Positions 1,830 through 14,999 of a stretch of 20,812 bases of DNA are shown piece by piece. The position numbers and the translations under genes are program-made. The notes beneath the pieces are model-generated. The model ran no database searches and was not told the origin of the DNA. It saw nothing but the letters and a program-made list of their open reading frames with translations. The stretch is from contig JAJRZD010000092.1 of the NCBI GenBank assembly GCA_024275415.1, positions 1-20,812 of the forward strand, read 5' to 3'. Positions within the stretch are counted from its first letter, which is position 1. Each line of letters begins with the position of its first letter. The DNA comes from an archaeon (GTDB lineage: Archaea > Asgardarchaeota > Thorarchaeia > Thorarchaeales > Thorarchaeaceae).

Positions 1830-3722
1830 ATGAACCACAAATACAAGGCTTTCACAATCATCCTCGCTATGATGGTACTTGGCGGTACTGTGATGCCCCT
1901 GGCCATTTTCCAAACAACGACCAGCATAGCACCATCAAGCAATCGTGCAGAGGTACTAGCGGCAACAGACCTTGTTGTCGAGAACAGCACTATCAACATC
2001 AACGGGGAATTCAACGATGATGATTTCCTGTTCTATGTGTACAATGGTACCTTTGAGATATCTGGCGCTAATGTTACACTCTACAATGTAACTGACAGCA
2101 GCAAGTACGCATCAAAACTAACTATAGGCGATGGTTCCGCAACGTTCTTTGATGTGCCGTTCGGTATGTGGGAATGGAATGTCACATGGGGTGGCACTTC
2201 ATTGAACGGTTCGATGGCTTCAGATGGCCCCGAGGCGTTCTCCTCACTGACTATCGGTAATCTCGATTGGGAGAACGATGACGATGACATTCTCGTTGCC
2301 GTTACAGACATTGAAGGAGATCCTGGTGAGGGACTCAATTTCACAATCTATAACCGTGACACCAACACCACGTATCAGGAGTTCCTACTCCCCGCAGATG
2401 GTATCGCGAATGTGAGTGATATTCCTATCGGCAATTACACGTACTATGTGACCGTTGCAGCAAACGAATACGCTGGGGCAGTCCTGATTGCAGAAAATTT
2501 CACTACTGATGGAACCACTCTGAAAATGCATCAGACAATTGGGCCCATTACGGGGTTGCAGGAATACTATGACCTTGAAGTGTTCACCCACTACGAAACG
2601 ACTCTTGCACCCCTACAGGGAGCTCTTGTCAATGTCACGTACTACAATGGCACAGTCATCGAGTATCAATACACACCTGCTAATGGTACTGTTATATTCG
2701 TAGACCTGCCCGTGGCATTTGTCAATTGGACCGTGAGCTACTTGGGAAGCCCAATCGAAGATGGCTCATACTCGTACAATTTGACTACACTCAGTACTGA
2801 CATTCGGAGCCCAGTAATCGCATCGCCAGGTGATCAAGAATTCTTGATTGGTACAGAGAACATCACGATAACATGGAACATCACTGACGAGTATCCGGCC
2901 GAAATCAACTTCTATGTTGATGACAGTTTGGAAGAAACACAAACATGGACCAACCAGACCTCGTACACGTTCAATGCAAGCGATTTCGAGATTGGAGTCT
3001 ATGAGCTAAAGCTTGTTGCAACGGATCTGAACGATAACACGGCTGAGGACACCATCTCACTGAGGATCTTCGAGAATACCACTCCAGTAATTGTCGGCCC
3101 CGAAGACTTCGAGTTGTACTATACCGAAGTGGGTGAAACCATTCGATGGAATTTCACCGAGGAAAATCCCGATTTCTACATTCTGTACAAGAATGGCGAG
3201 TCAGTCGTGAATGGAACACTCAATCCAGACAGTCCATTCTTCACGTACACGATAAATGAGGTTCTTGAAATTGGCGAGTACAACTACACCTTCTGGATGA
3301 ATGACACCAGTGGGAATTGGGCAACAGATGATGTGGCAGTCACAATCAAGGCAGATGATATTGCCCCAGTTATCACCTACGAGCCTCCTACTGTGACATA
3401 TGCTCAGGGTGACCCAGACATCATCCGAAATTGGACTGCCAGCGATGATTACATGGACACCTATGCGATCTATGTCGATGGCGTTCTTATTGTGGAAGAT
3501 GATTGGATTTCTGAAACGATCGAGTTCGATTTCGCTGGATTAAGCATGGGCGAACATGAAGTCAGACTAGTGGTGACCGATCTTGGTGGCAACACCGCTG
3601 AATCCACAGTCCAAGTCATCGTTTCAATGCCTAATACCATCTCCATCTTATTGATAATAGCAGCAATCAGCGGAATCGTTGTTGCTGCTGCTGCAGTCTT
3701 CTGGTTCATTAAGCATCATTAG
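1830..3722 (+). CDS. Membrane-anchored cell-surface glycoprotein with tandem beta-sandwich (CnaB-like and Ig-like) domains
   Basis: 630 aa. N-terminal signal-like hydrophobic segment, C-terminal TM helix with a 3-residue tail (KHH), acidic and Thr-rich. About 26 N-x-S/T sequons counted by hand. Three C-terminal repeats of pattern PVI..W...D..GN.A...V. Confidence 0.8.
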   Translation: MNHKYKAFTIILAMMVLGGTVMPLAIFQTTTSIAPSSNRAEVLAATDLVVENSTININGEFNDDDFLFYVYNGTFEISGANVTLYNVTDSSKYASKLTIGDGSATFFDVPFGMWEWNVTWGGTSLNGSMASDGPEAFSSLTIGNLDWENDDDDILVAVTDIEGDPGEGLNFTIYNRDTNTTYQEFLLPADGIANVSDIPIGNYTYYVTVAANEYAGAVLIAENFTTDGTTLKMHQTIGPITGLQEYYDLEVFTHYETTLAPLQGALVNVTYYNGTVIEYQYTPANGTVIFVDLPVAFVNWTVSYLGSPIEDGSYSYNLTTLSTDIRSPVIASPGDQEFLIGTENITITWNITDEYPAEINFYVDDSLEETQTWTNQTSYTFNASDFEIGVYELKLVATDLNDNTAEDTISLRIFENTTPVIVGPEDFELYYTEVGETIRWNFTEENPDFYILYKNGESVVNGTLNPDSPFFTYTINEVLEIGEYNYTFWMNDTSGNWATDDVAVTIKADDIAPVITYEPPTVTYAQGDPDIIRNWTASDDYMDTYAIYVDGVLIVEDDWISETIEFDFAGLSMGEHEVRLVVTDLGGNTAESTVQVIVSMPNTISILLIIAAISGIVVAAAAVFWFIKHH

Positions 3723-3820: not shown

Positions 3821-5125
3821 GTGACTATTATGGAATTCACTCGAGTACGTGACGTGCTTGGAGGCGAATTCGAAGGAAAGACTGTTCGTCTTCGGGGCTG
3901 GATTCATAGGATTCGAGCTCAGAGCAAGATGATATTCGTCACACTTCGTGACTCCTCCGGTATCGTCCAGACGGTTATCAAGAAGGCTGCGGTCGATGAA
4001 GACAAGTTCAAGGCCGCAAGCAAGATGCTAGTAGAATCCCTCGTTACAGTAGAGGGTGAAGTCAAAGCTGATTCACGAGCAATCGGCGGATATGAGGTGC
4101 AAGTGAAGGACATCAATGTGCTTCACTATGCAGAGGATTTTCCCATTACCAAGGACCAGAGCATCGAGTTCCTCAATGATAATAGGCACCTATGGATGCG
4201 GTCTCGCAAGATGAGCAACGTCCTGAAAGTGAGAGATGAAGTTTTCAGAGCAGCTCGTGCGTATCTCAGGGAGGAGGGCTTCTATGAAACGACATGCCCC
4301 ATGTTCGTAAGCACGATGGGCGAGGAGGGTGCAGAACTCTTCGAAGTGGACTACTTTGGGAAAAAGATCTACCTCACCCAGACAAGCCAGATGCATCTGG
4401 AACCCCAGCTTTTTGCGATGGAAAAAGTGTTCATTCTCGCACCTTCGTTCATGGGCGAGAAATCAAGAACCCGCAAGCATTTGACCGAGTTCTGGCACCT
4501 CGAAGTGGAAGAAGCATGGTGCGACCACGAGTGCAACCTCAAGCGTCAAGAAGAGCTCATCAGTTATATCTGCAAGTCCGTAGTTGAGAATCGGTCTTAT
4601 GAGCTTGCAGAGTTGGGTGTGAATCCCGAACGACTCTTGAAGATCAAACCTCCATTCGAAAGGATGACTTACGACAAGGCTATCGAGGTCTGTCAGGACG
4701 CAGGTCTCAAGATAAAATGGGGCGAGGACATTCGGACAGAAGCTGAGGACATACTGACAAGGGACAGAGATACCTTTCTCTTCATCGAGTATTACCCGAA
4801 GGAAATCAAGTCATTCTATATGAAACACAATCCCGAGAACCCACGTACTTACAGGAATGACGACCTCCTTGCGCCCCATGGTTACGGCGAGATAATTGGC
4901 GGGAGTCAGCGAGAGGACGAGGCTGACAGGATCATCGAGAACCTTCATCGAATTGGCGATGACCCTGAGAAGTATAGATGGTACATTGACATCCGACGGT
5001 ATGGCAGTGTCGAACATTCAGGTTTCGGTGTCGGTGTCGATCGCCTGATTACATGGATGCTAGAACTTGAGCACATCCGTGATTGTGTCCCGTTTCCACG
5101 AACCGTCAGCAGGGTCTATCCATGA
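3821..5125 (+). CDS. asnS: Asparagine--tRNA ligase (class IIb), atypical motif 2
   Basis: 434 aa from GTG 3821 (ATG 3830 is an alternative start). OB-fold anticodon domain (VRLRGWIH..LRDSSG), EKSRTRKHLTEFWHLE, YGEIIGGSQRE, motif 3 HSGFGVGVDR, C-terminus FPRT..RVYP as in archaeal AsnRS. Confidence 0.92.
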   Translation: MTIMEFTRVRDVLGGEFEGKTVRLRGWIHRIRAQSKMIFVTLRDSSGIVQTVIKKAAVDEDKFKAASKMLVESLVTVEGEVKADSRAIGGYEVQVKDINVLHYAEDFPITKDQSIEFLNDNRHLWMRSRKMSNVLKVRDEVFRAARAYLREEGFYETTCPMFVSTMGEEGAELFEVDYFGKKIYLTQTSQMHLEPQLFAMEKVFILAPSFMGEKSRTRKHLTEFWHLEVEEAWCDHECNLKRQEELISYICKSVVENRSYELAELGVNPERLLKIKPPFERMTYDKAIEVCQDAGLKIKWGEDIRTEAEDILTRDRDTFLFIEYYPKEIKSFYMKHNPENPRTYRNDDLLAPHGYGEIIGGSQREDEADRIIENLHRIGDDPEKYRWYIDIRRYGSVEHSGFGVGVDRLITWMLELEHIRDCVPFPRTVSRVYP

Positions 5126-5485
5126 TTCCAACAGGGAGGCATTGTGCATTAGCTGCCCACTTCTACGCAACAACTTCCTGTCTTTGATTCTGGAGTTCGA
5201 GAACCGGAATAGGGATGGAAAAGAGTCCTTGAAGTGCAAGGCCTGTTTCGCCTTTGATATATTCATCTGGAACAACCTGGATCTTCAGATTCTTTGGGAT
5301 TCACTAGAATTGCAAGAGTTCAGAGGAAAAGCAAAGTCATAAGATTCAGACATTATGCCAAGCCATACAATGGTATTAGAACGCAATGTTGGGATCATCT
5401 GGGATGATATTAGGAGATGATTTATTGGACAGGGCCCTTCTTTGGCATATGCTTTAATATGGTTGTTAGAATACTCCTGAGAAGA

Positions 5486-6394
5486 ATGGTACTAAATAAA
5501 TACACACATGATAATACGATGATATTCCATGGCGATAATGGCGAAGTGATGAATACCGAGCTGATTCCAGCTCTCGGGGATAAGAAGCTGTCTCTCTCTT
5601 TCTTGGATCCGCCTTTCAACCAGAACAAGGAATATGAGAACCACCATGATAGGATGGACGAGAAAGAGTACTGGGAATGGATGGAGGACATATGTCGTAA
5701 GATACATCAGCTCACAGACCAGGGGGGTGCCATTTATTTCATGCAGAGGGAAAAGAACACCCAAGAGGTGTTGAGTACTCTACGAGAAACAGGGTGGACA
5801 TTGCAGAACCTGATCATATGGAAGAAGAAGACATCAGCTGTTCCCCAGAGGTATAGATTCGGCAAACAGTATCAGGTCATCGCATTTGCAACGAAAGGCA
5901 CAAGACCAAGAGTCTTCAACCGTTTGCGAGTTGACTATCCTTTGTTGCCTGGCCAGAGAATCCCAAGGAAAAATGGGATCTTTGTCACGGATGTGTGGGA
6001 TGACATTCGAGAGATGACTTCAGGATTCTTTGCAGGCGATGAAGCATTGCGGGACCAAAAAGGAGAACGAGTTCATAAGCAGCAATCACCAATCGCATTG
6101 CTCCTCCGGATCATACTCTCATCGACACAGCCAGGGGACATCGTGTTCGATCCTTTCGCAGGTACTGGCACGACTCTAGTCGTATCAAATCAACTTGGCA
6201 GGATTGGCATAGGCATCGAATTGGGAAAAAGAAACTTTGATGTGATTGTCGACCGGCTAAGAGCAGATCGACCATCGGATAGGGTAAACCTCGATTATTA
6301 CAGGTTCACAGAAAATATTAAAGCGATAGCAGGATTCAGTCTGTCAAATCGATTTCAGCGAAACATCCTTGATTTTTCCAGACCACGCCAGTAA
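5486..6394 (+). CDS. Beta-class N4-cytosine/N6-adenine DNA methyltransferase
   Basis: Catalytic motif IV FLDPPFN precedes SAM-binding motif I VFDPFAGTGTT (beta order), with IIWKK and H..Q.P..LL.RII. The ORF is open from 5417, but ATG 5486 (MVLNKY..IFHGD), about 30 nt after a TTTAATAT box, is the more plausible start. Confidence 0.9.
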   Translation: MVLNKYTHDNTMIFHGDNGEVMNTELIPALGDKKLSLSFLDPPFNQNKEYENHHDRMDEKEYWEWMEDICRKIHQLTDQGGAIYFMQREKNTQEVLSTLRETGWTLQNLIIWKKKTSAVPQRYRFGKQYQVIAFATKGTRPRVFNRLRVDYPLLPGQRIPRKNGIFVTDVWDDIREMTSGFFAGDEALRDQKGERVHKQQSPIALLLRIILSSTQPGDIVFDPFAGTGTTLVVSNQLGRIGIGIELGKRNFDVIVDRLRADRPSDRVNLDYYRFTENIKAIAGFSLSNRFQRNILDFSRPRQ

Positions 6395-7735: not shown

Positions 7736-8641
7736 TCAGGCAATCTCGGCTGAGCTTTGTTGTTCCTGATGATTGCTCTCTTCCATCTCCAGTGGTGTGA
7801 TTAACAACCCTTCGCCTGTGATCTTTAGCACAACACGCTTTCCAATTCCCGCAAGACGACGGACTGTTTCGGGAATAACCAGCCTGCCTTTTGCATCGAC
7901 TTCTGAGATGTCTCCGAACAGGGTGTGTTTCTGTCCTTCTATCAACCCATCTCGAATCCTCAGAACTCTGTCGGCATAGGCTGCGACTCTTGGGGAGTGT
8001 GTGACATTCACGATAGTGGTCTGAAACTCCCTGTTCATGGTCTTGAGGGTGTCCATCACCATCTTGGCAGTTTCAGTATCAAGTTCACCAGTCACCTCGT
8101 CTGCCAACAGCAACTCGGGCTTGTTTGCAAGAGCTACACAGATTGCTACCCGTTGGTTCTCACCACCTGAGAGCTGGTGGGGCTTGTGCTTCATTCGCTT
8201 TTCCAGTCCTACAGCTTCAAGAAGCAGCTTTGCTCTCTGCGCAGAAGGCCCCTTGGGAGCCCCTGCAAGTCGCATCGGTAACATGACATTCTTCAATGCT
8301 GTAAGCCCTGGGACAAGATTGCCAGTTTGCCAAACGAACCCGACTTTCTGCCTCCGGTAAAGCATCGCCCTTCGGTCATTCAACAGGGTCACGCTGTGAC
8401 CATCATAGAGGATGGATCCAGCAGTGGGTTTATCCAATGCTCCAAGAAGTTTAAGCAGTGTAGATTTTCCTGAACCTGAAGGACCGACAATGGAAAGAAA
8501 CTCTCCTGGTGCCACCTCAAAGTCAAGACCGCGAAGGGCAATGACCTCCTTCATTCCTCTCTTGTAGACCTTCATTAGGTCGCGTACCACGATTTTGTTC
8601 TTTTTGATTACTTCTTCAAGATTCTCTGACATGATTATCAC
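7736..8641 (-). CDS. ABC ATPase (LolD/MacB family) with C-terminal AbrB/MraZ-like domain
   Basis: Walker A GPSGSGKS, signature LSGGENQR, Walker B LLLADE, H-loop VTH. C-terminal EVDAKGRLVIPETVRRLAGI..V.L....GLLITP. GTG start overlaps the upstream TGA; ATG 8632 is an alternative. Confidence 0.92.
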   Translation of the reverse strand: MIIMSENLEEVIKKNKIVVRDLMKVYKRGMKEVIALRGLDFEVAPGEFLSIVGPSGSGKSTLLKLLGALDKPTAGSILYDGHSVTLLNDRRAMLYRRQKVGFVWQTGNLVPGLTALKNVMLPMRLAGAPKGPSAQRAKLLLEAVGLEKRMKHKPHQLSGGENQRVAICVALANKPELLLADEVTGELDTETAKMVMDTLKTMNREFQTTIVNVTHSPRVAAYADRVLRIRDGLIEGQKHTLFGDISEVDAKGRLVIPETVRRLAGIGKRVVLKITGEGLLITPLEMEESNHQEQQSSAEIA

Positions 8642-11481
8642 TCCGCATATTGTATTTCCTCTGCGATATTCCTCTTGAGCGCCTTGCCGGCCACAACAAA
8701 GGTTGCTCCGAGCGCAAATACAAAGCTAATCAGGAAAATAATGCCAAGTACAAACCAAGGCGCATTCAACATTACAGGGAGCCGTGTCCACATGGCCAAT
8801 GTATCAGTCCCAATATAGATTAGTGGCATATTGATAGAGTAGACGGCAAGCAGTCCTCCAAGGAGTGTTCCAATCCCCAGTGAGATCATCACGCTCATCG
8901 CGGTGTCTACCAATACTATCCGCTTTATCTCCTTGGTTTCCGTACCGAGCGCTCGCAATATAGAGAAGTTTCGCCGTAATGAGCTAATCCTGACGCTGGC
9001 AACGATTATCGCTCCAATTGAGAGATAGATGATAGTAAACAGGACATTCAGCGTATAGACTCCATATATCGATTGGCTTGCCTTCGACTCTTGGGCTTGT
9101 TCAATGCCAGTATACGGCGATTCGATAGCACTAAAGCTATATTGTGTTAGATTGTGAAGACGGTTCATGACTGACCTGTAATCAGCAGTTGGCTCGATGC
9201 TGACCAAGAACTTGTTCACACTTGAGGTGTTCAAGTATTTGTGAACGAAATCAATGTTTGCAACGACAAAATAGGACGTGTCAGGTTCGCCTTGCAAATA
9301 CTTCTGATTATCCCAAAAATCTGGAGAACGAGCCATGACATCGACAATTTTCATGTTTGTGACATTGGCCCACTTTTTAGTCCGGAAAGATATGGAAATA
9401 TCTTCCCCGTATACAGGTGTACGTGAGTAGCCTTCACCTTGGTAATGATCAACAGGTCTAAAGGACGCTAGAACATTGTTCTCATCTTCTAACATCTTGG
9501 ATACTGCAAGACTTGGCTCATTCTCAAGTGTAAAGTAGGATAGCCAAAATGCAGATTCAAGCCAAGTGCTTGGATCAACACCGTAAATGAGCATGGATTG
9601 GTTAACAAAATCCCTAGAATAATAATAGGACGTATAGAATGAAACATATTGGTATATCTTGAACACTGGAGTGACTGAAGCCACGCCTTCAACTGCGGTG
9701 ATGTTATCCAAAAAGTCCAGTGTCACGTTCGTTAGTCCCTCCTTGACAGTGATTGAGATATCAGCACCAGTGTAGAACTTGTACACGGATTCAGTATGAA
9801 CGGATGCTGTTTCTGCGGATATCCCCGACATGACGGATACAGTGAACACAAGGGCTATGAATATCACACCCAGTGCTTCGCTTTTCTTATACGAGAGAAG
9901 GGTTCGTGACATGACCTTTGCTCCTACTCTTGCCGTCCGCATCCCAATCTTTCCAAGGATTGATGCTTTGATAGTTGCAGTCGGTCTCGCTAGGAGCCGC
10001 GAGAAAGAAAGCACGAATATTGCCATCATGGGAATGAGCATCATCAGGAGGAAAACTTGCATCTCTCTGAAATATGATACATATGAGATCAGAGTAAGGA
10101 TTGGCACAAGGATGTATCCTGCAATACCTAGGGCTACTACATCCACCATGACGTTACCTAGGTTCTCCTTTGAGAGCAAGACATCTCGCTCCACCACTGA
10201 ATGAGCTTCGGTGGCGGTCATAAGAAAAGACCTTACCGCCATTGGTAAGGCTGTCAGCAATCCGACTCCAAACGCAAAGACGAAAACAGCAGCTAGTGAT
10301 GGGAGAGATGCTATTATTGCCAGACCGGACAACCGCGTGAAATCAAAAACGAGCAGCAATTTCACTGTTGTCGAAAGTAATGCAGAAGCCCACCCAACGA
10401 GGAGCGCGCCCAGAGAACCTATCAACCCTGTGACTACAGCACTTCCGACGATCCAGTTGAACGCCTGCCATCCAGAGGCTCCACGGGTCTTGATTGTCCC
10501 GATATCTCTTCTGATTTCATCCGTGTGCAGCGTAGAGTTGTAGTATACAAGTAGGATGCCCATTACAATGGTCGGGATTGAGAATGCAAAGGCTAGCATC
10601 GTCATTGATAAGTACCATGCTTGATACTGTCGTATCGCATCACGAAGTTCGAATGAAGTGACAATTGCATAAGGAAGTGCATTTTGCTCAAACTGTCGTC
10701 GGATACTATCCAACGAATCGAACATGTTCTCGTCGTTCTGGTCAATGACGGAGTTCTCATTTATTGAAACCCAATACTGCTCAGATATGGCAAACGATTG
10801 TCCATATCCGATACTAGAGAAGTCTGTGTTAATCGCATCTTTGGTGGTAATCATGACAAGAGATGTATCACTGTCTGAGTACTCTTCGTAGTAGTAGTAG
10901 TATTCGTTTTCAAAAATGTTTGATTTGAAAGTGCCGACAATCAGGTACGATGCATTGACCTGGATCTCGTTCCAATACTCATCGTATGTTGTGACAGTCG
11001 CGTTGTAATAGTCGCCTATCGAGTACCCCCATTTATTGAAGAAACCTATCTCCAGATAGCAAGTGTCATTTGAAAGCGGGGGGACGTTGGATTCGAAATC
11101 CACCACACTCGGGAATGTATCGAAAAACGAGTCTTCGACTCCAAGATATACTGCCCTCGAGTAATAGTAATACCCCCCTTCATCGTATTCAAGAGTCACA
11201 TACGTATCCAAGACACTTAAAGGCTCGACTTCATCAACATAACTTGACGCCAAGAGTGCCTCAATATCCTCAATGCGTGTAGTATTCTGCTCATAGAATG
11301 CAGATGTGATAGCAATTTCCATATCGACATCCAAATTCTGTGTGAGATCGCTCAGGACTTTGGGACGTGTGTTTTCCATGTAGAAGAGGATACCACCAAC
11401 TATCCCTGCGGATAGTGAGAATATGAGGAACGTCGCTAGTATTTGAGGTTTCTTTGCTAATAGACGGGAAAGTAGGAACAC
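8638..11481 (-). CDS. Large FtsX/MacB-family ABC permease
   Basis: 947 aa with two repeats of TM + large extracytoplasmic domain + 3 TM. FtsX-type motifs RRDIGTIKTRGAS and RRNFSILRALG. GTG start overlaps the upstream TAG (TAGTG). Confidence 0.88.
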   Translation of the reverse strand: MFLLSRLLAKKPQILATFLIFSLSAGIVGGILFYMENTRPKVLSDLTQNLDVDMEIAITSAFYEQNTTRIEDIEALLASSYVDEVEPLSVLDTYVTLEYDEGGYYYYSRAVYLGVEDSFFDTFPSVVDFESNVPPLSNDTCYLEIGFFNKWGYSIGDYYNATVTTYDEYWNEIQVNASYLIVGTFKSNIFENEYYYYYEEYSDSDTSLVMITTKDAINTDFSSIGYGQSFAISEQYWVSINENSVIDQNDENMFDSLDSIRRQFEQNALPYAIVTSFELRDAIRQYQAWYLSMTMLAFAFSIPTIVMGILLVYYNSTLHTDEIRRDIGTIKTRGASGWQAFNWIVGSAVVTGLIGSLGALLVGWASALLSTTVKLLLVFDFTRLSGLAIIASLPSLAAVFVFAFGVGLLTALPMAVRSFLMTATEAHSVVERDVLLSKENLGNVMVDVVALGIAGYILVPILTLISYVSYFREMQVFLLMMLIPMMAIFVLSFSRLLARPTATIKASILGKIGMRTARVGAKVMSRTLLSYKKSEALGVIFIALVFTVSVMSGISAETASVHTESVYKFYTGADISITVKEGLTNVTLDFLDNITAVEGVASVTPVFKIYQYVSFYTSYYYSRDFVNQSMLIYGVDPSTWLESAFWLSYFTLENEPSLAVSKMLEDENNVLASFRPVDHYQGEGYSRTPVYGEDISISFRTKKWANVTNMKIVDVMARSPDFWDNQKYLQGEPDTSYFVVANIDFVHKYLNTSSVNKFLVSIEPTADYRSVMNRLHNLTQYSFSAIESPYTGIEQAQESKASQSIYGVYTLNVLFTIIYLSIGAIIVASVRISSLRRNFSILRALGTETKEIKRIVLVDTAMSVMISLGIGTLLGGLLAVYSINMPLIYIGTDTLAMWTRLPVMLNAPWFVLGIIFLISFVFALGATFVVAGKALKRNIAEEIQYAE
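10888..10902 (-). repeat. (TAC)5 trinucleotide run encoding YYYYY inside the permease
   Basis: The plus strand reads GTA five times at 10888-10902. Confidence 0.85.
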
Positions 11482-14288
11482 TACACATCACCTCCGTATG
11501 GACCACTCTCAGCCCATGAAGCGTTAAGTGCTTCAGACAGGTTTATTCTCGTACTCAAGATTGAAACTACAAGTGCAAAGAGGATTGCCGTGCCAACGAA
11601 GAATAATAGCACCGTAAGCATCGTCAACATTGGGAATACTGGATAGACCGACACCGGGAACGTATATACCGACGTCCTAATCCCAATCAGTGTGTTGATG
11701 ATGTAGAGAGGCCCAAATACAACAAGCAACAAAATGCTTGCGAGAATCAACATTGATATTTCAGCCAACTGTGCTTTAAGCACTAATCTTCTGCTTCCGC
11801 CCATAGACCTGATGAGAGCTATCTCTCGTTTTCTCGCAGTGACCCCTTCAAAGGCGTAGATGATGAAACCTGCGAAAATCACTGCAGACGTTGCAATCGA
11901 CAACAATGTATCAACAGCCCTATCAATCCTATAGGCGGTGCTGGATGTGAACGATTCAACTTCGTATGTGACCGCGGCCCATCCATTTTGTTCAGGAAAC
12001 ACTGTATCCCCACCTTGACTGAGAATGTCCTGAACGAACGCGGTACCATTCACTCCTTTCTTTGTCCGTACACACAGAATGTTCTCAGTGTCGTTTGCGA
12101 GAGATACTAATGAGCCCAAGTACTCGTTGTTGACCCAGAACGTATTAGTACCGACTGAAGTATCATAGAAGTAAAAACCGTAATCTGGGTTCGACCCTGT
12201 ATCCAGAAGCATTGAGTTTGATAGTGCGTCTGCAATTCCCACAATTGTGAACACAAAGAATTCAGATGAGTCGTAGTACGAGAATGCGCGAATCGAATCT
12301 CCTGTGGATAGATCATATTTGGCAGCTATATCAGAAGTGATGATTGCACCACTGGGAGTTGCTGCAAGAGTTTCCATCAGAGGCGAAAGGTCGCTTGAAT
12401 TTAGCTGGACGCCCCATTGGTCATAGCCTACATATTGAAATTCAAGAGGGTTCATCCCTACTATGTAGGCACGATCATAGTACTCAGATGACAGAATCAC
12501 CTTTATTTTGTTTATTGTGGTCGCAGCAGCAGTGGACGCATGGGCTGTCACATTCGCAGTAAAGTTTGTCCAAGCCGGAGTAGGATAGCTTCCAAGATGA
12601 AATGCCACATCCCCTCCAAATGCGAAACGGCCATGATTTTGTTTTGTCAACGGCATTGAACTATCAATTACAGAGTACGTCCATGATATGCTGATTGCAA
12701 GGACAAGGATCAAGACGGTAATGCCACCTGATGAAGCGCCCTTTCCAAGTCGTCGTACCCCAATTGACGAGGGTAAGATGCCCACAATCCTATTCATGCC
12801 TCTCGATAGGATATTCGCCCCCCTGCGAAGGCCTTTGATGGTCAAGCTTCCTAGCGATACGAGTAGTACAAGAGGCATAATTCCGGCTAGCATCGCCAAT
12901 AATGGAGCATATTGCAGTGCTCGACCCAAACTCGATAGACCGATCAGCATGAGAGCAGATAGGACGAATAATATGACGTCCCACCGTATTATTGCAAGAA
13001 TCCTTGCCACTTTCTCAAGCTTGCCTGTACTCTCATCGACTTTCCGTTTTGTAGAGTAAATCCCATTGTATCCAATCCAAGTGAACAGAGGAAGGAGTAC
13101 TCCTATCACGACTGCAAAAATGATAGACTCCACGCTTATCAAGAATGGCTCAGTGAAGAATAGAGATACATCAAACTTGAAGAATCCTGTCGATGCCAAG
13201 CCGATTCTACTGAGCAGAACTCCTACTCCCAGACCAACCAGTGTGCCTATAATAGTAAGAAACGCTATCTCTTTGAGGATTCGCCGTTCGATATCAGAAC
13301 GGGCAGCACCTCTTGACATCAGCATACTGTTTTCATAGCGACGGTCATTCATGTTAAAACGAATGGACAGAAACACCACAAGCACGACCAAAAGTATGGA
13401 TGCAGCAGACCGGATAATCTGGGTGAACCTAGTCATTGTCTGCCAATTGATATAGTCTGATACGGCTCGTGCTAAAAAGTCATTCACCCATATATTGTAC
13501 GAGTAGTATTCTGGAGGGTTATAAAGTGGATCCATCTCACGGATTGATTCTTCAATATTCAGCAGATATGACAGCGACTGCTGAGGATTGAACGGAGTCA
13601 GCTGCGTCCTGTCTACATCTAATGAAATCTCTGTTTCGAGATAAAGGTCGTATCCATCGACCAACTCAGGTACAACTAATGCTGTTGTTTCGCCCCAGTA
13701 CCCGTACCCATAGCCGTACTGGGAGGATATGGAATCTGTGAAGATACCGCATATTGTCAGGAGTCGATAGACACCCTCTATCTCGCCATAGGGTGAGATT
13801 GTTTCTTCGATTGTATAGTTTAGCGTATCACCAATCCAGATATCCATTGATTCTGCCAGGATCGGTGAGATTGCAATTGAACTCGTGTTTTCTGGGATGT
13901 GCCCTTCAACAAACTGGAACCTGTCTGGAAATATTTCAGAGTATTCTTCTGAAACGATTCCAACCCTTGCATAACTCCCATAATAGTAGTCATTATCTGC
14001 TCCGCCGACATTGGCGACCGTTGTATGGACATATTCCATCGAGGCAGCATGTGTCACCTCTGGAAGGTTTGTGATTTCGTCCACATAACGTTGTACAGAT
14101 TCGCCTCCAACGGTCATCGCAACAGGCCCTACGTTCCCAACACGGTCGTCCCATTCGTGAATCGAATAGGAATCGATATACACGAAAATGCCCATTGCCA
14201 TCGCAGACGCGAGAAATAGACAGAGTAGAGAGATAGATTTTCTACGCATACCCTGTAGTGCCTCATAACCAACTGGAATCGCAGACAT
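11481..14288 (-). CDS. Large FtsX/MacB-family ABC permease
   Basis: 935 aa with the same duplicated architecture. Motifs RRYENSMLMSRGA and RKREIALIRSMGG. SD-like GAGGGA upstream. Confidence 0.88.
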   Translation of the reverse strand: MSAIPVGYEALQGMRRKSISLLCLFLASAMAMGIFVYIDSYSIHEWDDRVGNVGPVAMTVGGESVQRYVDEITNLPEVTHAASMEYVHTTVANVGGADNDYYYGSYARVGIVSEEYSEIFPDRFQFVEGHIPENTSSIAISPILAESMDIWIGDTLNYTIEETISPYGEIEGVYRLLTICGIFTDSISSQYGYGYGYWGETTALVVPELVDGYDLYLETEISLDVDRTQLTPFNPQQSLSYLLNIEESIREMDPLYNPPEYYSYNIWVNDFLARAVSDYINWQTMTRFTQIIRSAASILLVVLVVFLSIRFNMNDRRYENSMLMSRGAARSDIERRILKEIAFLTIIGTLVGLGVGVLLSRIGLASTGFFKFDVSLFFTEPFLISVESIIFAVVIGVLLPLFTWIGYNGIYSTKRKVDESTGKLEKVARILAIIRWDVILFVLSALMLIGLSSLGRALQYAPLLAMLAGIMPLVLLVSLGSLTIKGLRRGANILSRGMNRIVGILPSSIGVRRLGKGASSGGITVLILVLAISISWTYSVIDSSMPLTKQNHGRFAFGGDVAFHLGSYPTPAWTNFTANVTAHASTAAATTINKIKVILSSEYYDRAYIVGMNPLEFQYVGYDQWGVQLNSSDLSPLMETLAATPSGAIITSDIAAKYDLSTGDSIRAFSYYDSSEFFVFTIVGIADALSNSMLLDTGSNPDYGFYFYDTSVGTNTFWVNNEYLGSLVSLANDTENILCVRTKKGVNGTAFVQDILSQGGDTVFPEQNGWAAVTYEVESFTSSTAYRIDRAVDTLLSIATSAVIFAGFIIYAFEGVTARKREIALIRSMGGSRRLVLKAQLAEISMLILASILLLVVFGPLYIINTLIGIRTSVYTFPVSVYPVFPMLTMLTVLLFFVGTAILFALVVSILSTRINLSEALNASWAESGPYGGDV

Positions 14289-14297
14289 GTAGATCCC

Positions 14298-14999
14298 TCA
14301 CTCATTGTTCACGATCTTGCCATCACGCATGTTGTATACTCGGTCCATCTTCGCACCAACATCAGGGTCGTGGGTGACTACAAGAAGTGTCCCGCCTTCC
14401 TTCTTTGTAAGGTCAAGGAGGACACGCATGATCTCTTCTCCGGTTTGTGTATCGAGGTCGCCTGTTGGCTCGTCAGCTAGAACGACTATTGATCTTGTTT
14501 CTTCAGGGGGTTTTGCCAGGGCCCGTGCTATGGCGACACGTTGTTGTTCGCCCCCACTCAGCTCATCAGGACGGTGGTCTGCCCGTTCTGATAGTCCCAC
14601 AATCTCAAGGAGGTAATCGACACGTTCCTTTCTTGTTTCTTCTTCCACTCCTGCAATCAGCAATGGGAGTTCTACATTCTCGTATGCTGTCAGAACTGGC
14701 AGTAGATTGAAGAACTGAAAAACAAAGCTAATCTTGTTGCGTCGAATTCGTGTAAGCTCATTCTCCTTCATGGATGTGATGTCGATACCGTCAATACTGA
14801 CAGTCCCACTTGTCGGACGGTCAAGTGCACCTATGAGGTTGAGAAGAGTTGTCTTGCCTGAGCCCGATGGACCCATGATCCCTATTGCCTCGCCAGGTTT
14901 CACCTGCAATGTCACACCTCGCAGGGCAGCAACCTCAATCTCACCCATCTGGTATATCCTAGAAACACCATTTACGTCTACGATGAAATTCTCGCTCAA
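14298..14999 (-). CDS. ABC ATPase (LolD/MacB family)
   Basis: 233 aa. GPSGSGKT, LSGGEQQRVAIARAL, VLADEPTGDLD, VTHD. TTG start preceded by GGAGAGGG. Confidence 0.95.
   Translation of the reverse strand: MSENFIVDVNGVSRIYQMGEIEVAALRGVTLQVKPGEAIGIMGPSGSGKTTLLNLIGALDRPTSGTVSIDGIDITSMKENELTRIRRNKISFVFQFFNLLPVLTAYENVELPLLIAGVEEETRKERVDYLLEIVGLSERADHRPDELSGGEQQRVAIARALAKPPEETRSIVVLADEPTGDLDTQTGEEIMRVLLDLTKKEGGTLLVVTHDPDVGAKMDRVYNMRDGKIVNNE

Follow-up and report, generated by a model that had tools for sequence, protein, structure and literature searches.

A methionine at the motif-2 arginine position of an archaeal asparaginyl-tRNA synthetase, probably a one-base error in a Thorarchaeaceae assembly

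Introduction

In class II aminoacyl-tRNA synthetases, the arginine of motif 2 binds ATP at its alpha-phosphate, and it binds the adenylate as well. The solved structure closest to the asparaginyl-tRNA synthetase (AsnRS) described here is that of Pyrococcus horikoshii (1X54/1X55/1X56), a protein of 434 amino acids with the same domain order, i.e., an OB domain and a class IIb core, and the two proteins share the flanks of motif 2, the GGSQRE sequence and motif 3. They differ in that 1X54 has Arg211 (by alignment) where the present AsnRS has a methionine, and in the loop before motif 2, which reads EGG in 1X54 and EEG here, the latter being common to all Thorarchaeota-type orthologues.

Class II cores can also lose the ability to charge tRNA, e.g., in HisZ and in the AsnRS-derived AsnA, and an AsnA-type paralogue is present in the genome under study. 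Inactive class II paralogues of the HisZ type are separate, long-diverged proteins that coexist with a working synthetase. Unlike HisZ and AsnA, the gene described here is the only AsnRS orthologue found, its deviation amounts to a single base, and no working synthetase accompanies it.

The closest counterpart of the substitution itself comes from human NARS1, in which R322 aligns to the position of the methionine (8TC7 residue 227 plus an offset of 95). The p.Arg322Leu allele, which also replaces the homologous motif-2 arginine with a hydrophobic residue, causes a dominant neurodevelopmental disorder, and the R322L enzyme fails to support yeast growth in complementation, i.e., it behaves as a loss-of-function variant (PMC12513288). 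It is to be noted that this is a heterozygous human allele of a eukaryotic cytoplasmic enzyme, and its relevance here is that the arginine is needed in an AsnRS. Lastly, 8-oxoguanine (8-oxoG) formed in library preparation is a documented source of G>T/C>A artefacts (Costello et al. 2013, PMC3616734).

The sequence analysed here, referred to as the window, is the whole of contig JAJRZD010000092.1 (20,812 nucleotides; C74 in our numbering) of assembly GCA_024275415.1, a metagenome-assembled Thorarchaeaceae genome of 3.53 Mb in 127 contigs with an estimated completeness of 92.9%. The database names of its nearest homologues likewise point to Thorarchaeota, a group of the Asgard archaea.

Results and Discussion

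The asnS gene and its product

The asparagine--tRNA ligase gene of archaeal type, asnS, occupies 3830..5125 (+) of the window and was identified by the curated models NF003037 and TIGR00457, by Pfam, by its match to 1X54 and by orthology. In the database the gene is called from the ATG at 3830, which yields 431 amino acids; an in-frame GTG at 3821 is an alternative start, and the frame 3821..5125 (+) then gives 434 amino acids, from which all residue numbers are counted throughout. The protein scored 458.1 bits against NCBIfam NF003037 (cut-off 414) and 398.1 bits against TIGR00457 (cut-off 342.6), both of them curated equivalogs that describe the whole protein, while its scores on the AspRS models fell under their cut-offs. 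Two Pfam profiles were matched over their full lengths: the OB-fold anticodon-binding domain (tRNA_anti-codon, PF01336) at residues 22-101 and the class II (D/K/N) catalytic core (tRNA-synt_2, PF00152) at residues 116-428. The best solved relative, the P. horikoshii AsnRS 1X54, aligned from end to end (E 1.5e-127). By these sequence measures the gene is predicted to encode a full-length AsnRS of the ordinary archaeal type, the sole apparent anomaly of which is one residue, encoded by one base.

This residue is Met211 (residue 208 when counted from the ATG at 3830), which is encoded by the ATG at 4451..4453 (+), occupies the position of the invariant class II motif-2 arginine and owes its identity to a deviant T at base 4452. 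Bases 4448-4459 read ttc atg ggc gag, so that motif 2 becomes PSF-M-G-E, or PSF-M-G-EKSRTRKHLTEF when extended, and the translation of the 434-residue frame (3821..5125) contains LAPSFMGEKSRTRKHLTEFWHLE around the motif. Met211 aligned with the motif-2 arginine of 1X54 (psfRaeksrtrrhltefwhle), of the Thermus AsnRS 5ZG8 and of human NARS1 8TC7. The other signatures are in place, i.e., GGSQRE at 4901..4918 (+; residues 361-366), as judged by alignment to the orthologues, and motif 3, GFGVGVDR, at 5021..5044 (+), with its Arg408, as judged by alignment to the orthologues and the solved structures. The initial annotation of this DNA was therefore accurate on two counts, namely in reading FMGE at motif 2 and in calling the gene otherwise intact and full length, with its OB domain, GGSQRE and motif-3 arginine. 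The fRxE arginine by which motif 2 of an AsnRS is recognised is lacking from the assembled sequence, but the lack is most likely to be read as a sequence error, not as a ground for excluding the protein from the AsnRS family.

The second peculiarity pointed out by the initial annotation, namely EEG in place of the usual EGG in the loop before motif 2 (residues 168-170; 4322..4330, +), turned out to be the norm of the clade. In the alignment to the orthologues, all those of the family and the order have G-E-E-G, whereas the more distant archaea of the phylum have E-G-G. A search pattern for EEG was matched by 105 of the 120 nearest homologues, the remaining 15 being sequences that gave no match to the pattern. 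The loop thus appears, from these alignments, to be a conserved trait of the Thorarchaeota-type clade and not an anomaly. Other clade-specific residues accompany GEEG in the Thorarchaeota-type AsnRS, an example being TQTSQMHLEP where SQSAQLYLEA is found elsewhere, and E-G-G is the form of the loop before motif 2 in archaeal AsnRS and AspRS outside this type.

The motif-2 position in related sequences

Forty related genomes were searched with the AsnRS protein, and the best 30 loci were aligned. All 22 Thorarchaeota-type orthologues, full-length or partial and 63-87% identical, carry an arginine codon at the motif-2 position; across these and one distant orthologue the codons AGG, AGA, CGA, CGT, CGC and CGG are all in use, and seven further distant relatives, which bring the distant orthologues to eight in all, also have arginine there at the protein level. 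The arginine-bearing orthologues come from six congeneric species (79-87% identical), from the remaining family members (71-77%), from a single genome that shares the order (63%) and from remote lineages of the phylum; to the single-copy orthologues of its own family the window AsnRS is 72-87% identical. A search of 5.8 billion proteins gave the same picture, in that F-R-[G/A]-E occurs in 119 of the 119 nearest database homologues, and the only sequence among the best 120 matches that lacks the arginine is the one encoded in the window, which forms a singleton cluster from one contig and has its nearest database relative at 87% identity. The change to Met211 is seen in this assembly alone. A scan of metagenome contigs for the exact pattern, with N at the variable base, returned zero matches and revealed no further assembly of the species. 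The initial annotation had itself held that FRAE in close orthologues would mark the methionine as an artefact, and it had proposed the alignment that now shows FR[A/G]E in every one of them.

The aligned codons also reveal how the methionine could arise. The nearest species reads TTT AGG GGA GAG where the window reads TTC ATG GGC GAG, and the orthologues of the same genus read AGG, AGA or CGA followed by GGN, i.e., F-R-G-E. Since arginine is followed by glycine in these close relatives, the step from AGG to ATG is one G>T transversion at 4452, and because this single substitution suffices, no insertion and deletion need be assumed. The archaeal motif had initially been taken as FRAE, from which atgggc, set against agggcc, would differ by a local compensated indel; the loss of the arginine is upheld, but the glycine after it is ordinary in the genus, and with AGG GGA in the nearest species the compensated indel is superfluous.

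Orthology, constraint and compensation

Immediately upstream of asnS, at 1830..3722 (+), lies the gene of a surface glycoprotein with weak Pfam Ig-like/PKD matches. By tblastn, this gene adjoins asnS in about 19 of the relatives' loci, at 47-68% identity, and because this neighbour is conserved beside asnS, the window gene is regarded as an orthologue and not a paralogue. On the combined evidence of copy number and gene order, the window asnS is the single-copy, syntenic orthologue of the relatives' AsnRS.

Where conservation among the other 119 proteins reaches at least 99%, i.e., in 186 columns, the window AsnRS departs at four, namely K33A, F103Y, R211M and D340N. At the strictly invariant columns its singleton departures number two, and other homologues, which are presumably functional, show up to three. 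The sequence comparison thus gives no apparent sign of relaxed constraint or decay in asnS. The basic residues privately gained by the window AsnRS, at positions 62, 64, 96 and 111, all fall in the N-terminal OB domain or the hinge, and none of these private gains places a compensating basic residue in the catalytic domain.

These observations bear on two readings in which the methionine would be genuine and fixed. According to the first, the protein would be catalytically dead or repurposed, e.g., as a tRNA-binding pseudo-enzyme, and Asn-tRNA would be made otherwise. The intact frame, the full length and the retention of every other motif agree with such a protein, but further drift at catalytic columns would be expected of it and was not seen, not even species of the same genus share the change, and the relatives' active-type AsnRS has this syntenic gene as its sole orthologue here; we regard this reading as very improbable. 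According to the second, the AsnRS would be active, its unusual active site managing without the motif-2 arginine. The intact reading frame, and nothing more, speaks for it; set against it are the lack of any basic residue gained in the catalytic domain, the arginine in 119 of 119 nearest homologues, and the failure of complementation when the homologous arginine of human AsnRS is changed to leucine (PMC12513288). This second reading is hardly credible, and even when the two are taken together their chance is small. Both had been offered initially, as an impaired or repurposed paralogue and as a compensated active site, beside a third option, an error; the first two fare badly on the grounds just given, including the absence of GatCAB detailed below, while the error option is retained, by a simpler, one-base route.

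Were Met211 nevertheless real and fixed, which we consider most unlikely, either the sole AsnRS works without its motif-2 arginine or a pseudo-enzyme coexists with an undiscovered route to Asn-tRNA. A sole AsnRS of this kind would challenge one of the best-founded rules of class II synthetase catalysis and would bear on how Asn-tRNA is synthesised in Asgard archaea.

Other routes to Asn-tRNA

A dead AsnRS would require that Asn-tRNA be supplied by other means, and the means initially suggested was a non-discriminating AspRS acting together with GatCAB. Searches for a second asnS and for gatCAB, also proposed in the initial annotation, found neither in this 92.9% complete genome. Only one match of AsnRS level was obtained, and no second AsnRS was found. 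Class IIb matches were otherwise limited to an archaeal AspRS on contig C20, whose best-scoring model bears the name aspartate--tRNA(Asn) ligase, and to an asparagine synthetase of AsnA type, a paralogue of the AsnRS core without the anticodon domain. The latter appears to be split between the end of one contig (C44:4957-5622) and the start of another (C17:40-345), which are probably adjacent in the genome.

For GatA, the model TIGR00132 gave no match in this genome, although at 92.9% completeness this does not prove absence; the GatB model TIGR00133 matched GatE alone, which itself scores 778.7 bits on TIGR00134. Among the genomes of the family, 0 of 31 had a GatA above the cut-off of 481 bits, the only matches being generic amidases at about 200 bits. 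The name of the best AspRS model is in keeping with a pseudo-enzyme, and a GatCAB operon could sit in the missing part of the genome; on the other side, neither GatA nor GatB was detected here, and GatA was likewise detected in none of the 31 genomes of the family, so the suggested bypass finds no footing. Since the direct AsnRS route is the only one found in the lineage, the AsnRS must be active, and, as far as the sequence of an incomplete genome can be relied upon, the enzyme would have to work in the living organism.

One family genome (G014, about 97% complete) was the sole one of 24 without a match of AsnRS level at E<=1e-60; its amidase-like match, at about 200 bits, is also far under the GatA cut-off. 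In a separate search of the whole genome for tRNA genes, ARAGORN at default stringency reported 16 tRNAs, or 23 when introns were allowed, none of them for Asn or Asp, and a relaxed run returned 506 calls, which were mostly spurious. The low count may be due either to genes that were left unassembled or to introns beyond the program's model, and such tRNA introns are common in Asgard archaea.

Private one-base changes across the assembly

Private one-base changes across the assembly were gauged by its in-frame stops. Only nonsense changes were counted, since among missense differences the roughly 100 artefacts to be expected over the aligned stretch would be lost in about 10^5 evolutionary ones. 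The comparison set consisted of 1.6 Mb of the nearest species, matched to this genome by reciprocal tblastn of non-overlapping open reading frames of at least 120 amino acids; a stop was counted when the alignment had at least 60% identity, when at least 7 of 12 residues were identical on each side, and when the stop lay at least 20 residues from the ends of the alignment. Stops that passed this strict filter were then sorted by eye into clean ones and spurious ones, the spurious class being evidently out-of-frame ORFs with several stops and no protein-like sequence.

In this genome, 235,068 aligned residues contained 18 in-frame stops that passed the strict filter, about 12 of them being clean single stops. 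The nearest species, serving as the control, had 7 in 236,786 residues, 5 of them in one out-of-frame ORF and 2 upstream of starts, which leaves 0-1 clean stops; the contrast of 12 with 0-1 is one of small counts, sorted by eye. A smaller sample of 400 kb of the nearest species gave 1 stop versus 0. Private stops were found in the genes of MCM (C43:46811), Cdc6/Orc1 (C43:42288) and RtcB (C127:36549). Further clean stops are at C8:11287, C8:2451, C24:25529, C71:24504, C73:18304 and C110:38739, and the genes affected also include those of a thiolase, a pyridine-nucleotide disulphide oxidoreductase, a nitrilase, a PTPS, an MBL hydrolase and an M29 peptidase. The stop at C73:66481 is in an unannotated gene, the intact counterpart of which in the nearest species spans two of the fetched pieces, and C57:31229 and C57:31319 are two stops in one unannotated ORF. 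At all 12 positions the nearest species has sense codons, and the open frame of MCM is 596 amino acids here compared with 700-716 in three species of the genus. These changes are unselected and private to the assembly, and they reach essential genes (MCM, Cdc6/Orc1 and RtcB).

The clean stops are also biased in type. Seven of the twelve are Glu to TAA/TAG, which are G>T changes, and three are Ser to TAA/TAG, which are C>A, so that G>T or C>A accounts for 10 of 12, compared with 37.6% expected if all one-base routes were equal (binomial p=0.0016). The AGG to ATG change in asnS belongs to the same G>T class. Ten events among 31,619 nonsense-capable G/C sites correspond to a rate of about 3.2e-4 per site (rough 95% range 1.5-5.8e-4). 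By estimate this amounts to about 520 events genome-wide, about 330 of them missense, and asnS would have received one or more missense changes with a probability of about 0.14. Because of this implied missense rate, a scan of this assembly for lost catalytic residues should turn up a few.

Origin of the methionine codon

Considering these results, Met211 is best explained as the outcome of one G>T change, AGG to ATG at window base 4452, that exists only in this assembly and would be a member of a genome-wide scatter, mostly G>T or C>A, which carries the signature of oxidised guanine. From the type and the privacy of the change at 4452, we infer that it belongs to the scatter, which itself would be artefactual, not biological. 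The most likely cause would be a sequence or consensus error, arising from a damaged template, from low coverage or from amplification, in which case the enzyme of the living organism would carry arginine and act as a standard class II AsnRS. In other words, FMGE is truly what the file contains, but the organism itself most probably lacks it, and we assign a probability of about 0.78 to Met211 being a technical error in the sequence of an ordinary, essential, single-copy AsnRS.

The known artefacts of 8-oxoG are of the same substitution class as 10 of the 12 nonsense changes and AGG to ATG, but they were low-allele-fraction calls in deep human data, whereas here they would have reached the assembly consensus (PMC3616734). 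As the documented artefacts are of low fraction, an 8-oxoG error at the consensus level requires low coverage, amplification or heavy damage.

The same consideration leaves room for changes that were already in the template, since consensus assembly normally filters low-fraction library artefacts (PMC3616734). It is conceivable, therefore, that the base at 4452 is a real but recent and unselected mutation, produced in a burst of oxidative G>T change in the sampled DNA, with the consensus catching deleterious alleles; the source could be a population, or else reads drawn mainly from a few cells or from extracellular DNA, with, e.g., defective 8-oxoG repair or very long dormancy behind it. The private, mostly G>T/C>A one-base changes in MCM, Cdc6 and RtcB would fit such a burst as well. 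Nonetheless, no cell could live on a single genome in which stops interrupt MCM, Cdc6/Orc1 and RtcB and the AsnRS is dead without any bypass, and because of this the damaging alleles cannot all share one living lineage; moreover, an inactive AsnRS allele would not persist. A real mutation is thus the less probable origin, and an unlikely one, although for the enzyme the outcome would be the same, i.e., the functional gene has arginine.

Given the several hundred private G>T/C>A changes estimated for this assembly, single-residue or single-stop anomalies elsewhere in it, whether a lost catalytic residue, an apparent readthrough or an apparent pseudogene, are suspect until reads or a second genome confirm them.

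Other genes of the window

Directly downstream of asnS, at 5417-6394 (+), lies a gene of an N6/N4 DNA methylase (PF01555), for which no match was found in the 1.5-kb asnS flanks of 29 relatives' loci; judged by its distribution, its place beside asnS may be a lineage-specific insertion, e.g., an orphan methylase or a remnant of a restriction-modification system. Farther downstream, a block of four genes at 7736-14999 (-) encodes an ABC ATPase, two FtsX-like permeases of 947 and 935 amino acids, and a second ABC ATPase; it is a MacB/LolCDE-like system of the mechanotransmission type with outsized extracytoplasmic parts.
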